From: a virus
Lineage: Duplodnaviria > Heunggongvirae > Uroviricota > Caudoviricetes
Virus record (IMG/VR): IMGVR_UViG_3300033075_001920
DNA: 64,000 bases
Strand: one strand, 5' to 3'
In this document: piece by piece, positions 30,706 to 50,474 of the stretch
Layout of the letters: each line of letters opens with the position of its first letter
Numbering within the stretch: the first letter of the stretch is position 1
Notes under the pieces: generated by a model
Database searches by the model: none
Told to the model about the DNA's origin: nothing
What the model saw: the letters and a program-made list of their open reading frames with translations, nothing else
Made by a program: the position numbers and the translations under genes

Positions 30706-30900
30706 TCAACATCTTTTTCCATATGAATTCAGATTGCAATTAGGACATAGCCTAAGCCGCTTTACATTCATTTTAAACTCAGCTTCATTAGTTTTTGTAA
30801 CGTTGGGGGCTTCAATTCTTTGTTCATGACCGCAATGCTCACAGACAATTTTTGCACTTGTCTCAAATCCCTTAAATGTATCAATACTTAATACTCTCAT
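30706..30900 (-). CDS. small Zn-finger protein (CEHC...CPNC)
   Basis: two CxxC pairs. Confidence 0.6.
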   Translation of the reverse strand: MRVLSIDTFKGFETSAKIVCEHCGHEQRIEAPNVTKTNEAEFKMNVKRLRLCPNCNLNSYGKRC

Positions 30901-30943
30901 TTTTATGACATAAAAAAAACTTCAGTTAATCCAAAGTATGTAT

Positions 30944-31179
30944 ATTGTAGCGCATATCCTGCAAATGTTGTTTATGAATATAGCAAATTTGTTGTAAATA
31001 CTTTATTAATCATAATTATACAGAAGTGTCCCAGCTTTGTTACGGGGACAGAACTGTTGTAAATATGAATACAAAATTGTAAGATATCGTTTCCTGGTTC
31101 ATCGGCTTCACAAGGAAGTCTCCACAGGCACACCGCGGGTACACTCCCGCTGCAATCAGAGAACTGATGTGCAAATCTA
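30944..31179 (-). ncRNA. TnpB/Cas12f-like guide-RNA scaffold copy C with degenerate mini-array
   Basis: homolog of 45387-45522 and 47319-47427; promoter TAGATTTG; TTTACAAC repeat ends at 31056 and 30991. Confidence 0.7.
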
Positions 31180-45333: not shown

Positions 45334-45522
45334 GTTGTATATGCCTTTCAAATTGAGGTTATTCACAACATGAATCGCAGATAGAAGTTGTAAAAGCCAT
45401 TAGTGATAACTGGGCTGTGTTGTAAGGCATTATTTCCTGATTCATCGGCTTCGCAAGGAAGACTCCACAGGCGCATCGCGGGTACACTCCCGCTGAAATC
45501 AGAGAACTGATGTGCAAATATA
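45334..45522 (-). ncRNA. TnpB/Cas12f-like guide-RNA scaffold copy B with mini-array
   Basis: promoter TATATTTG; scaffold to 45387; spacer 45354-45386; repeat ATTTGAAAGGCATATACAAC 45334-45353. Confidence 0.8.
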
Positions 45523-45563
45523 GGAAAATTCTTGAATTCTGTTAGTAATTTAGAAAAAAATAT

Positions 45564-45571
45564 TATATTTG
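45564..45571 (+). promoter_or_regulatory. -7 promoter element of Leu/Ser/Tyr tRNA operon
   Basis: TATATTTG. Confidence 0.75.
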
Positions 45572-45579
45572 CACTCCCG

Positions 45580-45642
45580 ATGAGACAACAATTATCACTC
45601 AGTTATTCGTACCTATCAGCCTTTGCTGATCAGCTCGGATAA
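45580..45642 (+). CDS. leader peptide 2: MRQQLSLSYSYLSAFADQLG
   Basis: codons 5-13 use only L,S,Y, the amino acids of the downstream tRNAs. Confidence 0.88.
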   Translation: MRQQLSLSYSYLSAFADQLG

Positions 45643-45667
45643 CCTATGTGATTAAAATCTTGCATAG

Positions 45668-45695
45668 AAACCCCGGCTGAAAAGTCGGGGTTTTT
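45668..45695 (+). terminator. attenuator terminator of Leu/Ser/Tyr operon
   Basis: AAACCCCGGCT-GAAA-AGTCGGGGTTTTT. Confidence 0.85.
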
Positions 45696-45705
45696 GTGTT
45701 TATAT

Positions 45706-45779
45706 ACCCCTTTAGCCCAACGGAAGGAGGCGCGTGCCTTAGGAGCATGACAGTATCGGTTCGAATCCGATAGGGGGTA
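45706..45779 (+). tRNA. trnL: tRNA-Leu (TAG), short variable loop
   Basis: loop CTTAGGA, A73, 5-nt variable region. Confidence 0.8.
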
Positions 45780-45815
45780 CAAAAAAAAGTACACTGTACA
45801 AAAAGTGTACAAAAT

Positions 45816-45889
45816 GCACCCGTAGTCCAACGGCAGGAGACGAAGAGTTTAAGCCTCTGACAGTGTGGGTTCGAATCCCTCCGGGTGTA
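45816..45889 (+). tRNA. trnL: tRNA-Leu (TAA), short variable loop
   Basis: loop TTTAAGC, A73, 5-nt variable region. Confidence 0.78.
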
Positions 45890-45894
45890 CAAAT

Positions 45895-45985
45895 GGAAAG
45901 TGAAGCAGCTGCATTGGAGCGGCGATCAGTCTTGAAAACTGAGTCAGGTTTTGCCTGTGGGGATCGGGTCCTCCTCTTTCCGCCA
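45895..45985 (+). tRNA. trnS: tRNA-Ser (TGA), atypical T-loop
   Basis: loop CTTGAAA, long variable arm, G73, CCA. Confidence 0.82.
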
Positions 45986-45990
45986 GTTAT

Positions 45991-46079
45991 GGAAGATAGT
46001 CAGATATGGCTCGCTGAGTCTGTTTGCTAAACAGATCTGCTTTAAAGGAGCAGTGAGGGTTCGAATCCCTTGTCTTCCG
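45991..46079 (+). tRNA. trnS: tRNA-Ser (GCT)
   Basis: loop TTGCTAA, long variable arm. Confidence 0.88.
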
Positions 46080-46087
46080 CTAAATAT

Positions 46088-46173
46088 GGGTGTGCTGTCG
46101 CGATTGGTGGAGCGGCGCCGGTCTGTAAAATCGGTACTTTGATACGCTGTGGGTTCGAATCCTACCACACCCT
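46088..46173 (+). tRNA. trnY: tRNA-Tyr (GTA)
   Basis: loop CTGTAAA, long variable arm. Confidence 0.88.
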
Positions 46174-46214
46174 CTAAATAAACATAAATATACAAAAGTG
46201 TGTATATTTACATT

Positions 46215-46820
46215 TTAATGTATGTTTGGCAGTATATTCAACTCCGAGTATTCCTTTCCGAAATTTTCAATCGCAGCTTGATTATATGCCATTGCAGCAT
46301 CTTCCTCGTTTATAAAATAACCCAGATGCTTTTTAACGTAATCTAATTTTATATAAGCAGCCCATTTTTTTGCAAAATTACTCCAGCTAACTCCCTTGTA
46401 AACACTGGATGGCTCATCGCCGTTTGCTGTTTTGGGTTTCTTCTCCTTGTAATGTGCTTTACGATGATCAATGATTTCAATATTGTCTCGTCTTAAATTG
46501 AGCGGGTTTTTATCCTTATAATGGATAATAGATTTACCTTCAATATCCATCATTAATTTTGCTACCGGCGCAACAACCCTCTTACCTTGTTTTGAAATCC
46601 ACAATGCCATTACTATACCCCTCTTTTTATCAAAGAAGATTGCCTGCTGTCTTAAAATTTCATAATCTAAATCATCAAATTCAATGATTTTACCGCAGGT
46701 TGTTTTGACCCATCTGAATTGATTCGCAAATATCCGCATTGCTTTTATTGCATCATTTTTTGAGATATTTTCGGTTTTCTTTCCAAAAATGTCGTGCAAT
46801 ATTTCAATTTCGGTTTTCAT
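46215..46820 (-). CDS. HNH-AP2 homing-endonuclease-like protein
   Basis: IHYKDKNPLNLRRDNI (degenerate HNH) plus SSVYKGVSW...HLGYF..EEDAAMAYNQAA AP2 domain. Confidence 0.85.
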   Translation of the reverse strand: MKTEIEILHDIFGKKTENISKNDAIKAMRIFANQFRWVKTTCGKIIEFDDLDYEILRQQAIFFDKKRGIVMALWISKQGKRVVAPVAKLMMDIEGKSIIHYKDKNPLNLRRDNIEIIDHRKAHYKEKKPKTANGDEPSSVYKGVSWSNFAKKWAAYIKLDYVKKHLGYFINEEDAAMAYNQAAIENFGKEYSELNILPNIH

Positions 46821-47073
46821 CTGTTTTGCAAAGTAAATCTATTTAAAATAAATTGTTGTTATTGTTTAGTTTGAAAATGTCGAACTTTAAAATGTTTTCC
46901 GGAATAAGGGTTTATGAAAGAGCAAATACTATATGTTACTGAGGCGGGAGTTCTTATGTTAAATGTATGTGATATTGTTTACGGAATACAATATTTTGAG
47001 TATGAAACGCTGCAAAACCAAGTTTATTGGCTGCATTGTCCTGTTTGGTTTTATGATAGATATAATTAAATCT

Positions 47074-47265
47074 AAACCGAGAACTATAAAAATATTAGTA
47101 GTGTCTCAGTTTGAAATTTTAGACCGTTTGGTTTTTTATATCCTTACAAATTTACCGTACAAGAAAGAACTATGTATTTAATATTCATCTTTTTATAAGT
47201 GTATGGTTTTTTTGTATCCTTACAAATAACCATACACATAGGTCAAACCGAGAACTATAAAAATA
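47074..47265. repeat. AT-rich non-coding region with nested direct repeats
   Basis: AAACCGAGAACTATAAAAATA at 47074 and 47245; TATCCTTACAAAT at 47139 and 47215. Confidence 0.85.
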
Positions 47266-47294
47266 ATTTTAATTTATTTTCCCGGTTTTTTGTG

Positions 47295-47427
47295 TACATT
47301 TGCCTTGTTCTTTGAACCCAGCGGGAGTGTACCCGCGATGCGCCTGTGGAGTCTTCCTTGCGAAGCCGATGAATCAGGAAATAATGCCTTACAACACCGC
47401 CCAGTTATTACTAAAGGCTTTTACAAC
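47295..47427 (+). ncRNA. TnpB/Cas12f-like guide-RNA scaffold copy A
   Basis: promoter TACATTTG; 109 nt nearly identical to reverse complement of 45387-45495. Confidence 0.8.
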
Positions 47428-47530
47428 TAGTACGAAATTGTCGATTTCTTTAGTTTGAAAGGTATTTACAACTCGTATGAGTATCATAAATTTGAAAGGC
47501 AATACAACATTCCCTCCAGCTCACATCTTT
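47411..47530 (+). CRISPR. minimal CRISPR-like array with short repeats
   Basis: CTAAAGGCTTTTACAAC / GTTTGAAAGGTATTTACAAC (47453-72) / ATTTGAAAGGCAATACAAC (47490-508) separated by unique 25- and 17-nt spacers. Confidence 0.65.
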
Positions 47531-47558
47531 CCGTTATGCACCTAGTTGTAAAACTTAA

Positions 47559-50474
47559 GTGGATAATACGCATTTATCCATTTTAGCTTTGCCGAACCAT
47601 ATGAAAAATATATTTTTAATGCTGTTCTGCCTTTTGTCTCAGATCAGCTTCGGACAAACTCCGACCGACACCATCTATCTGAATGGGAAGACAAAAACGA
47701 CATTCAGCCTTGGCAAAACAATACCATTTTATTACATCGATTGCATTCAGTTCACAACAAGAACCACTTCCAGATCTATTTCGGGAGTTGGAACAGTAGT
47801 TTTTAAATCCGATGGCTCAGGCTACATTACGCCTTCATCAGCCGCTTATACTGCCAAATGGGATTACTATGTTTCAAATTGTGGATATGAAAAAAGGCAT
47901 CTTTTTTTTATGCAGAAGCCTACCATCCCGCCCCCGCCGGCCAATAAAGTACCTATACCAATATCAGATGCTTATACGATAGATCAAGATGCTACACTTT
48001 CTGAAAATATACTTATCAATGATTCAGATCCGGATTCAGATCCAATAACAGTTGCCTCATTTGCAATAAACGGAATTATTTATTCTCCCGGCACTCAGGT
48101 TATCCCATCGGTTGGAACTATAACCATTTTATCTTCCGGAGCACTATCTTTTTTAAATGCCGCAGGTATAACAGGAGATATTCCTATTATCAGTTATCTT
48201 ATCAAAGACAGTAAAGGAGCGCAAGCTGCATCATCTGTTTTAATTTCTGTAAAATCCAAACCGACCCTTCCGCCCAATACATTTGTTCTGGATAAAACAT
48301 CTACTACTTCAGCAGGAGTATACATCGGCAATAAACTAATCAGAACCCTTTGGAACAATGTTTCTAAACCGGCAGGCACTTATACCGTATCCTGGGATGG
48401 AAAAGACGATGCAGGGAACACAGCTCCTCCGGGAGGAAAAATAGCAGTTCTTTACCATCAGATGACCTACCAGTGGAAGGCAAGTATTGGAAATTCTTCC
48501 AGAGTGGATACAGGTTCTCATAAGCTCAGAGGGTTACGCACCCCGTTTGCTGGAGTTGAGGCTGGTGGCTACATTTATATATGTAAAGGTAACACAGAAG
48601 GTAACAGCCCGATATTCAAAATAGCCAAGTCGGATCCTCAATATATGTATTCTCTCCGTGAATCAGGTTGTGGGGATTGCGATATGCAAACTGAGTTTGT
48701 AGCCTCGGATGGTAATTTGGTTTATTGGGCAGGTTATGACGCTTGGACCGGTTACTGGCCTGTTACCAATAAAGTTCCACCGGATACCAATTCAAGAGTA
48801 AAGTCGATTATCTATGCGACCAAGGTAAGCGATGATCAGGATTATACATTTCCATCCGGAAAAAAGACAAAAGCTTCCCTTGCGGCATGTAATACATATT
48901 CCGGCATTGGTATAGTGCTGGACGATGACCTTGCCCGCCCTACGGGTCTTGCTGTCATGTCCACGGGGAATTATCTGTATTCTACCCATCTGGGCAAGTC
49001 GTGGGTTAGGTGCTATAATAAGACTACCGGTTCGCTGATAAGAACAATGGTCAATACTTTATCCAATATTGCAATCGATGGCAATTATCTGTATGGAATA
49101 AGCGGATCAACCATTAAAAAATATGCAATTAATTCAGATGGCACCCTGACAGATCAGAATGTAAATATTGCCATGCAAAGTCCTTTAAATATCTCTGTAA
49201 AAAATGGCACAATCATGGTCATAGAGGCAGCAACACAGCAGGTCTTAGCATACAATACCTCGGGTGTACTTCAATGGACTCTTGGTCAAAGCGGAGGATA
49301 TAAATCTAACCCTTATGTCAGCGCAGACAGGTTTAACTTCATAGAATTTAATAGAGATGAAAAAAAAGGATTTATTATACCTCAGGCAGATGGTTCGTTT
49401 TGGGTAGGAGATGCAGGCAATTGCAGAACTATCCATTTTGCAGCCGACAGAACGTATATTGAAAATGTAGCATATCTTCCTACCAATTATAATTGTGGAG
49501 TTGATCAGAATGCCCCTACAAGGGTATTTGCCGGATTTTTAGAATACGATGGACCTACCGGAACACTGGTAGCTAATTGGAGCGCAAACCTAACAGCCAA
49601 CTACAATTACATTGATAATCGTGCAATTTTTTCAAGCATACAAACCATATTAGGCAGAACCTATGGATTGATACTTTATTATCCAAATCCACCTTCTTCT
49701 GAAAATGTCGCTCAGGAATTAGTAGAACTTACATCCACGGGAATCAGGTTTACCGGCATTCGAAGGAATAATGACAATCGCTATGTATTTGACAAAAACG
49801 GCGATTTGCTGCATCCGGAAAGCGATTACTACGCATTATCGGGCACCGGAAAAATCATCCGGGAAAGATTTACAGGAATTAATACTTCAGGTAATCCTAC
49901 CTTTTCAGCTCCGGAAACCTTGTACACCTTTCCACTTGGTAAAAATTATCCTTCCTATGCTTCTTTGAACTATGGCACTAATGCCAAAGGAATTGTATTT
50001 TCGGATCATTATAATAATACCGGTTATCACTTAGGACGCATTGAAAACGGACAATGGATATGGATGACATGCAAATCTACTTCCAGAAACTATACTGGGG
50101 ATATGCCTACGGATGGCACCTTTGATTGCGGGAATGGAACACAGTATGCAGGATGGAATCTTTATAACATAGATTCATTTTTTGTCTGGTCTTTTCATGG
50201 AGAATTTTGGAAAAACTCTCAAACCAATATATGGAATCTGTTTCATGAGGATGGTTTAATGCTTATGCAGCTGGGTAAAACCGGTCCGCAGGCAGACATC
50301 TATAATGGAGGACATGATGCACCCAGGGAAGCTGCTGGAAACATGCTTGGAGGCCAGATTGTTAAAATCGGAAACGATTACTGGATCTTCTATTGCGATG
50401 AATCCAGACATGGTGCTATACATTACTTTAGGATATCCGGGGCAAACACGGTAAAAATAATTTATTTAAAATAA
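47559..50474 (+). CDS. secreted multidomain protein (signal peptide, Big/cadherin-like Ig, FlgD-Ig, beta-propeller); start likely 47601
   Basis: MKNIFLMLFCLLSQISFGQ; SDAYTIDQD..NILINDSDPD; LIRTL..YTVSWDGKDDAG. Confidence 0.82.
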   Translation: MDNTHLSILALPNHMKNIFLMLFCLLSQISFGQTPTDTIYLNGKTKTTFSLGKTIPFYYIDCIQFTTRTTSRSISGVGTVVFKSDGSGYITPSSAAYTAKWDYYVSNCGYEKRHLFFMQKPTIPPPPANKVPIPISDAYTIDQDATLSENILINDSDPDSDPITVASFAINGIIYSPGTQVIPSVGTITILSSGALSFLNAAGITGDIPIISYLIKDSKGAQAASSVLISVKSKPTLPPNTFVLDKTSTTSAGVYIGNKLIRTLWNNVSKPAGTYTVSWDGKDDAGNTAPPGGKIAVLYHQMTYQWKASIGNSSRVDTGSHKLRGLRTPFAGVEAGGYIYICKGNTEGNSPIFKIAKSDPQYMYSLRESGCGDCDMQTEFVASDGNLVYWAGYDAWTGYWPVTNKVPPDTNSRVKSIIYATKVSDDQDYTFPSGKKTKASLAACNTYSGIGIVLDDDLARPTGLAVMSTGNYLYSTHLGKSWVRCYNKTTGSLIRTMVNTLSNIAIDGNYLYGISGSTIKKYAINSDGTLTDQNVNIAMQSPLNISVKNGTIMVIEAATQQVLAYNTSGVLQWTLGQSGGYKSNPYVSADRFNFIEFNRDEKKGFIIPQADGSFWVGDAGNCRTIHFAADRTYIENVAYLPTNYNCGVDQNAPTRVFAGFLEYDGPTGTLVANWSANLTANYNYIDNRAIFSSIQTILGRTYGLILYYPNPPSSENVAQELVELTSTGIRFTGIRRNNDNRYVFDKNGDLLHPESDYYALSGTGKIIRERFTGINTSGNPTFSAPETLYTFPLGKNYPSYASLNYGTNAKGIVFSDHYNNTGYHLGRIENGQWIWMTCKSTSRNYTGDMPTDGTFDCGNGTQYAGWNLYNIDSFFVWSFHGEFWKNSQTNIWNLFHEDGLMLMQLGKTGPQADIYNGGHDAPREAAGNMLGGQIVKIGNDYWIFYCDESRHGAIHYFRISGANTVKIIYLK

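Follow-up and report, generated by a model that had tools for sequence, protein, structure and literature searches.

A 64-kb viral stretch (IMG/VR record IMGVR_UViG_3300033075_001920; hereafter the window) carries three copies of a small RNA gene, loci A, B and C, and a fourth copy, D, is present on a metagenome contig, L093. We conclude that these loci are very probably genes for a guide RNA of the TnpB family, of a type between the omegaRNA of transposons and the pair that trans-activating CRISPR RNA (tracrRNA) forms with CRISPR RNA (crRNA) in CRISPR systems. Our best reading, which we consider reasonably probable, is that they are modules for trans-acting guide RNAs and belong to a TranC/Cas12f-like system intermediate between TnpB and CRISPR, providing real guides for an effector that is supplied in trans.

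The scaffold of locus A follows a putative promoter box of the form TAnnTTTG and precedes a degenerate mini-array (Table 1). A permissive Rfam scan (331 nt) had a single credible match, to RAGATH-18 (RF03064), which aligned end to end with positions 47343-47380 at a score of 25.5 bits and an E value of 0.0099. All conserved unpaired positions of RAGATH-18 are matched by the locus A core, which also has the closing stem CCUG/CAGG, the internal loop GGAG...GAUGAA and the inner hairpin of this family. At gathering thresholds, Rfam returned tRNAs and the tmRNA over the window and nothing else. RAGATH-18 forms the core of the reRNA, the guide RNA that IS607 TnpB nucleases use, and in the ISFba1 reRNA the motif lies at -51 to -122, so ~50 nt from the guide (Ren et al. 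2024, PMC11061315). The corresponding distance from core to guide in locus A is 47 nt (47380 to 47428), and the scaffold adjoins the guide on its 3' side.

When one genome for each prokaryotic species was scanned with an exact pattern, the short-hairpin core was found at nine places, five of which are directly behind open reading frames (ORFs) with a TnpB zinc ribbon and a D-x-D-x-N-A-A ending. The same pattern was found at 76 places in IMG/VR, all on one common plan: a hairpin, 5-7 nt, the core, another hairpin, a terminal word such as GUAGUUCAC, GGAUGUCAA or GGUACAAC and then variable sequence. Using 30 omegaRNA cores located behind tnpB-like ORFs, none of them from this phage, we built a covariance model, R3. 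This model picked out loci A, B and C together with L093, with scores of 40-41.5 bits and E values of ~1e-9 (locus A, 40.2 bits, E 3.6e-9), and had no further match in the window. A second model, R1, covers the whole scaffold; it was built from copies A-D and scores locus A at 151.5 bits, and its best outside match was the omegaRNA of a 399-aa TnpB (L069), which aligned over the full length including the final UACAAC. Thus, the likeness to TnpB omegaRNA that an earlier sequence-only reading of locus A had proposed is supported by the RAGATH-18 match, the tnpB-linked cores and R3. The scaffold does not lie at a tnpB 3' end or a transposon right end, however, since the promoter box stands where the end of the gene would be. 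A looser pattern for the 3' half gave 18 chance matches in IMG/VR, none of which matched R1, and our first pattern scans of IMG/VR and metagenomes yielded mostly chance matches in GC-rich coding DNA, with L093 as the only real one.

Some occurrences of related sequences elsewhere are recorded here in their own right. In a Clostridiaceae metagenome-assembled genome (JAAYGP010000092.1; L010:5578-5618, +), an omegaRNA-like core with hairpins is found just after the gene for ribosomal protein S7, with no tnpB-like ORF directly upstream. The same 38-nt word is present in two archaeal metagenome-assembled genomes (L003:1794-1831 and L006:1855-1892, +) inside a conserved 301-aa ORF, within the peptide ...GRLWSLAEESDEPGK..., and is probably a chance or coding occurrence there rather than an RNA gene. 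In the virus record IMGVR_UViG_3300006217_002295 (L064:5-105, +), a 17-nt segment separates a TnpB-type omegaRNA from a second copy of its terminal hairpin alone, with UAGUUCAC attached. Here, too, an omegaRNA has a 'mini-array', of one unit, on the principle of locus A but in an unrelated lineage.

As judged from the four copies, the 3' module of the RNA appears to behave like a tracrRNA plus crRNA. In all four copies, the repeat half that immediately precedes UACAAC is paired with eight anti-repeat positions, and three of these eight pairs have changed on both sides yet are still paired among A/B, C and D (A-U to G-C, G-C to A-U and C-G to U-A). The free-standing repeat halves downstream can pair with 10-11 of the 12 anti-repeat positions, as worked out by hand. 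Furthermore, the repeat halves change in step with the anti-repeat: loci A and B read AAGGCA or AAGGUA, copy D reads AAGGUAUU, and the final unit of C reads AGGAUAU. The complementarity of anti-repeat and repeat, which had been proposed for locus A, is therefore seen to covary between copies; with four sequences, this covariation is limited though consistent evidence.

Contig L093 is an unrelated metagenome contig, 1230 bp long. Its box and scaffold are those of the window loci, with 88% identity to A, and are followed by an array of six full repeat-spacer units of 65-67 nt and one shortened unit of 45 nt. The repeat of this array reads TTGTGAATGG...ATTTGCAAGGTATTTACAAC, its spacers are ~30 nt, and its periodicity is that of a spacer-acquiring CRISPR array. 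Because the left flank of L093 matches, in synteny, the tRNA-Leu leader that adjoins locus B, the guide-RNA module occupies a conserved position in two phages.

The homologous arrays of L093, L104, L108 and L114 give a true repeat of ~35-37 nt, TTGTGAAT...TACAAC. The sequence-only reading had placed a promoter, a scaffold, an anti-repeat and three TACAAC-ending units in locus A, and all of these were read directly at the same coordinates, the units ending at 47427, 47472 and 47508. Its delimitation of repeats and spacers holds for these unit ends; given the length of the true repeat, the 'spacers' it listed include repeat sequence. Part of its first spacer (47438-47453) is the diverged 5' half of a repeat, and all of its second (47473-47490) may be another; the spacers proper of locus A would then measure 10 nt and 0-18 nt, leaving aside the terminal segment of ~36 nt. 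What had been taken for a short repeat is the conserved 3' half of a longer one, and the window arrays are worn down. They consist of irregular units of 23-53 nt with one intact 35-nt repeat (locus B), and every copy keeps a unique segment after the last repeat.

The promoter box and scaffold are common to A, B and C, and the sequence further 3' differs in each. Counted from P1 to the 3' end of the scaffold, identity is 97% between A and B and ~70% between C and either of them. The scaffold word GCCGATGAATCAGGAA is repeated at 45434-45449 (-) and, with one change, at 31091-31106 (-), and the TAnATTTG box is found at the matching place in B, C and L093. The occurrence of these elements is far beyond chance. 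We considered the scaffold as coding sequence and rejected this: because copy D contains one-base indels, no reading frame is conserved across it, and the short ORFs are not conserved either. The A/T-rich hairpin downstream of locus A received no call in a terminator scan.

Table 1. Features of the three guide-RNA loci in the window
Feature	Position	Strand	Basis
Locus A putative promoter box TACATTTG, Bacteroidota-type -7	47295-47302	+	read directly
Locus A scaffold, ~125 nt	47303-47427	+	RAGATH-18 match, models R3 and R1, pair counts
Locus A short leader hairpin	47307-47317	+	part of scaffold
Locus A P1 hairpin GCGGG/CCCGC	47321-47336	+	read directly
Locus A RAGATH-18-like core, words CCTGTGGAG...CGATGAATCAGGAA around a small hairpin	47343-47380	+	read directly
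Locus A anti-repeat AATGCCTTACAA	47383-47394	+	read directly
Locus A loop, then cis repeat half AAAGGCTTTTACAAC ending TACAAC	47413-47427 (repeat half)	+	scaffold end
Locus A degenerate mini-array	47428-47508	+	compared with 65-67-nt units of L093, L104, L108, L114
Locus A array, first part: 10-nt segment, then diverged full-length repeat	47438-47472 (repeat)	+	
Locus A array, second part: another diverged repeat, or 18-nt spacer and 18-nt repeat half	47473-47508	+	
Locus A terminal guide segment, unique, ~36 nt	~47509-47544	+	read directly
Locus A truncated repeat start GTTGTAAAA	47545-47553	+	read directly
Locus A A/T-rich hairpin and T-run, possible terminator	47560-47590	+	read directly; inverted-repeat listing
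Locus B box TATATTTG	45522-45515	-	read directly
Locus B scaffold	45514-45387	-	R1 155.6 bits; R3 41.5 bits, E 1.6e-9
Locus B array, 18-nt spacer	45386-45369	-	
Locus B array, intact 35-nt repeat	45368-45334	-	
Locus B array, 33-nt spacer	45333-45301	-	
Locus C box TAGATTTG	31179-31172	-	read directly
Locus C diverged scaffold with changed anti-repeat GATATCTTACAA	31171-31056	-	R1 125.9 bits; R3 40.3 bits
Locus C array: 33-nt segment, diverged repeat, two short units	31055-30920	-	sequence reading
Locus C last unit, matching the changed anti-repeat	30966-30944	-	complementarity worked out by hand
Locus C 3' end: terminal segment, then T-run	within 30920-31055	-	

A repeat-pattern scan of IMG/VR found two contigs, L104 and L105, whose repeat matches the locus B repeat at most positions, as compared by eye. 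In both, the array directly precedes a 455-aa ORF with Cas12f1-like TNB and OrfB_IS605 domains, in which candidate RuvC D/E/D motifs were read by eye. This protein has 507 relatives at E below 1e-5, and the contexts of the relatives that we fetched are phage-like and include contigs of 311 and 340 kb. We refer to these as the Cas12f-like family of jumbo phages (P0003; loci L104-L114 and L136-L139). The earlier suggestion that the repeat ends of locus A resemble those of Cas12f is thus supported, since this repeat family flanks Cas12f1-like-TNB proteins in other phages. In the Cas12f-like loci, the tracrRNA runs into a cis repeat half and the first guide, short units are interspersed in the arrays, and one nuclease gene may have two modules (L108). 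A model of the tracrRNA of this family, R2, built from four modules, found these four as well as all three modules in loci outside its training set. From these comparisons, the window RNA combines a transposon-type core with the repeats of the phage Cas12f-like family.

The P0003-type Cas12f was tried as the cognate effector of the window RNA and rejected as a direct match, its tracrRNA being of a different class. In L104 (7163-7334, +), four short repeat-half units with 4-22 nt between them separate the regular array from the nuclease start codon, a placement that would suit autoregulation.

Based on these features, the mechanism that we propose is as follows. Loci A, B and C would each be transcribed from their own promoter into a guide RNA derived from that of TnpB; for locus A, this would be a transcript of ~280 nt that is bound by a protein of the TnpB/TranC/Cas12f class. 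The 5' two-thirds of this RNA would form an omegaRNA-type scaffold, consisting of the P1 hairpin, a 6-nt linker and the RAGATH-18-like core with its short inner hairpin. The 3' module would be a tracrRNA fused to a crRNA, in which the anti-repeat AAUGCCUUACAA pairs in cis with the repeat half ending in UACAAC; a guide segment directly after this half would make a natural single-guide RNA. The repeat 3' halves of the degenerate array may pair with the same anti-repeat in trans. The RNA would then direct the protein to DNA that matches the segment after each ...UACAAC. Because the protein is absent from the 64 kb, it would be supplied by the rest of the phage, the host or a co-resident element. 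The most likely purpose would be to attack or silence rival mobile elements, a role already suggested for other arrays that viruses carry.

We infer guiding in trans because the promoter, core and helix are conserved in the diverged locus C and because L093 has kept a regular array. A stronger version of this reading is that the phage supplies RNAs alone and commandeers a protein of the TnpB/TranC/Cas12f class that belongs to the host or to a resident element and would be either redirected at rivals or host genes or disarmed. We regard this version as possible but doubtful. If true, it would amount to an RNA-only hijack of an RNA-guided system by a Bacteroidota virus, and to a preserved RNA between the transposon omegaRNA and the tracrRNA-crRNA pair of CRISPR.

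Several results weigh against guiding in trans or against the scaffold assignment on which it builds. The RAGATH-18 score is below the Rfam gathering threshold of 44.9 bits. A bona fide short-hairpin omegaRNA relative scores only 31.9 bits on RAGATH-18, likewise under the cut-off, and a sub-threshold score is for this reason typical of the short-hairpin variant. Covariance comparison with omegaRNA families, a step suggested along with the sequence-only reading, gave E ~1e-9 for R3 and a match below threshold for RAGATH-18. The R3 training set was itself fetched by a pattern derived from the locus A core, so that part of the agreement in the core follows from how the set was chosen; that pattern had no bearing on the upstream hairpin or the spacings in R3. 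Thermodynamic folding of the scaffold was no better than that of shuffled sequence. Model R2 found no match in the window or L093, and R1 and R3 found none in the Cas12f-like loci. Moreover, save for the terminal segments, the spacers in the window are 0-18 nt long, as would fit decay or a role other than guiding.

No effector gene was found in the window either. Neither TnpB nor Cas12 was matched in Pfam searches of 20 window ORFs (candidates of 350-550 aa, the neighbours of the loci and the largest ORFs), tblastn of the Cas12f-like protein against the window gave nothing, and hidden Markov models of 32 TnpBs and of the Cas12f-like family had no match under E 0.1 in all stop-to-stop frames of at least 40 aa. 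These empty searches agree with the sequence-only reading, which had seen no TnpB/Cas12 ORF and had called the locus effector-less; the latter term holds for these 64 kb alone. Within the window, 16-mers from the guide segments gave chance-level matches alone at up to 3 mismatches. The proposed spacer search was also without success. No protospacer was found in the fetched loci, none in the GenBank phages of INPHARED, save A/T-rich chance matches to Clostridium and Staphylococcus phages, and none in IMG/VR for the four spacers searched there (two from the window and two from L093).

Other phages provide a comparison for a guide-RNA gene without a neighbouring effector. In the IMG/VR phages L015, L014/L048 and L029 (genomes G008, G006 and G007), stand-alone omegaRNA-like genes have a sigma-70-type -10 box and no tnpB directly upstream. 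The 46-kb genome G008, rated 100% complete, has such a promoter-driven gene and no TNB-domain protein. In G006 (170 kb), a TNB-domain protein is present only as fragments at the genome ends, and two further IMG/VR phage genomes with stand-alone omegaRNA-like genes encode a TNB-domain protein somewhere in the genome. Phages with stand-alone omegaRNA-like genes thus occur both with and without a TNB-domain protein.

Mainly because the window arrays are so reduced, two other explanations keep a small probability. The loci could encode an RNA decoy, that is, an RNA anti-CRISPR in which intact scaffolds with useless guides soak up a host defence nuclease of the TnpB/Cas12f class. Phage-encoded solitary repeat units are a precedent for this. 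Three promoter-driven copies with well-kept scaffolds, worn arrays and very short spacers would be expected of a decoy, and the missing effector gene in the window, the lack of targets in the searches made and the complete phage G008 fit it as well. On the other hand, L093 keeps a regular array with ~30-nt spacers, which suggests a guiding function in the lineage, and each copy retains unique segments after its last repeat. RNA anti-CRISPRs are reportedly repeat mimics and not whole tracr-like scaffolds, and we know of no host system with this repeat, which also counts against a decoy. We consider a decoy unlikely. Still less probable, in our view, is that a phage-borne TranC/Cas12f-like system lost its nuclease gene and left three modules behind as functionless, drifting relics. 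Degenerate arrays and an effector absent from the window are what such decay would leave, but all three copies retain the promoter box and P1, the full set of conserved core positions and the terminal UACAAC. In addition, locus C is only 70% identical to A and yet has its anti-repeat helix maintained by compensatory changes, and copy D, which lies in another phage and is 88% identical to A, has an intact array.

Two further explanations appear to us highly improbable. The sequence-only reading had suggested that the RNAs might reprogram a host dCas12f-sigmaE pair to initiate transcription where the guides direct it. Such systems occur in the Bacteroidota (PMC13472631), to which the host probably belongs, the guides here are short, and the RNAs are promoter-driven and stand-alone. 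As far as can be compared by description alone, dCas12f-sigmaE guide RNAs are likewise stand-alone single guides with the guide at the 3' end and a Bacteroidota setting; in contrast, they are single RNAs of 85-105 nt with 14-16-nt guides and no tracrRNA-like species, have a scaffold that resembles the CRISPR repeat itself and are encoded beside dcas12f (Hoffmann et al. 2026, PMC13472631). The targets of such RNAs lie upstream of the genes they regulate and have a 5'-G TAM. The window RNA has a 125-nt omegaRNA-type scaffold with a separate anti-repeat and is joined to 35-nt repeats, and no 16-nt match with up to 3 mismatches was found at a promoter-like position in the window. This suggestion is consequently not supported, the architecture being unlike that described and no plausible target being present in the window. 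We give just as little weight to the idea that the loci are non-autonomous mini-elements of the IS605/IS607 type, right-end omegaRNA cassettes mobilised in trans whose 'guides' are simply flanking DNA. The scaffold is of the transposon omegaRNA type, the identity between A and B stops exactly after TACAAC, and 36% of RAGATH-18 RNAs do not adjoin IS607 TnpB (Ren et al., PMC11061315). However, no transposon left end and no tnpA or tnpB remnant was found, the block starts with a host-type promoter and not with a tnpB 3' end, and locus B and L093 stand at the same genomic position in two phages. Repeat units downstream, with a regular CRISPR array in L093, are also not what transposon flanks would give.

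Compared with the IS607 TnpB reRNA (RF03064, PMC11061315), the window RNA shares a hairpin before the core, the core CCUGUGGAG...CGAUGAA-N-CAGGAA and a distance of ~50 nt from the core to a 3' guide; the terminal ...ACAAC is also found in some TnpB omegaRNAs (L069). It differs in having its own promoter and not overlapping or adjoining tnpB, in an inner hairpin of ~14 nt versus ~49 nt, and in a terminal module that is capable of being split into anti-repeat and repeat, with array units following. The scaffold is also shorter than the ISFba1 reRNA, which is 187 nt.

Repeats of 35-37 nt that share TTGTGAAT...TTTGAAAGG.A..TACAAC link the window to type V-F Cas12f and the jumbo-phage family, as do a tracrRNA fused to a cis repeat half, interspersed short units and several modules per gene. 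Unlike the window RNA, the jumbo-phage family has an R2-type tracrRNA that lacks the RAGATH-18-like core, and its modules lie directly beside the nuclease gene. Viruses are also said to carry mini-CRISPR arrays and solitary repeat units, including RNA anti-CRISPRs, as reportedly described by Medvedeva in 2019, Faure in 2019 and Camara-Wilpert in 2023. These are, reportedly, likewise cas-less guide or repeat elements that rely on an effector encoded elsewhere, but are said to consist of repeats or arrays only, whereas the window adds a complete tracr/omegaRNA scaffold in three dispersed copies. TranC systems are intermediates between transposons and CRISPR (Jin et al. 2025; described in PMC13565253 and bioRxiv 10.64898/2026.03.27.714800). 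They have a transposon-type guide RNA whose 3' part acts as tracrRNA plus crRNA, repeats of 32-38 bp, short arrays and no adaptation genes nearby, and some are phage-borne. TranC is defined by its protein, which is absent from the window; the window loci match TranC on the RNA side.

Cas-less virus arrays, phage-borne Cas12f and TranC systems and the split of omegaRNA into a tracrRNA are already known. What is new here is a canonical RAGATH-18-type core fused to CRISPR repeats, in three dispersed, self-promoted copies with no nearby effector. A single RNA gene that joins a TnpB guide scaffold to CRISPR repeats and an anti-repeat offers a natural intermediate for study, one that corresponds to the splitting of the RNA by which type V CRISPR systems have been proposed to arise. 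If the whole genome should be without an effector, viruses could exploit or jam RNA-guided proteins with RNA alone. Such a mechanism would have implications for defence between phage and host, for the conflicts of mobile elements with one another and for the exchange of guide RNAs and effectors in trans. Should an effector be found, the ~125-nt scaffold may also represent a compact natural single-guide design.

The surroundings of the loci contain further repeats. Scaffolds A (47319-47427, +) and B (45387-45495, -) form a 109-bp inverted repeat, 97% identical, which brackets ~1.8 kb with a tRNA operon (Leu, Leu, Ser, Tyr) and a 201-aa ORF, and the segment between them could be invertible by recombination. 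The last identical positions of the two, directly after TACAAC, are 47427 and 45387. An independent Logan contig from another run is 100% identical to the window at 45466-47348 and ends inside scaffold copies A and B, as expected for an assembler that meets an inverted repeat. Upstream of locus A, two pairs of direct repeats were observed (47074-47094/47245-47265 and 47132-47151/47208-47227). One of the pairs is an exact 21-mer; the other is a 20-mer that contains the anti-repeat-like TATCCTTACAAAT and has its second copy in the loop of a hairpin at 47196-47240. L093 carries sequence related to these direct repeats, in part inverted.

The rest of the window is phage-like, with 23 tRNAs, the tmRNA, NAMPT/Nudix, methyltransferases and glycosyltransferases. 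Beside locus C, a 64-aa ORF (30706-30900, -) starts right after the T-run; its product has two CxxC pairs, is zinc-ribbon-like and is too small for an effector.

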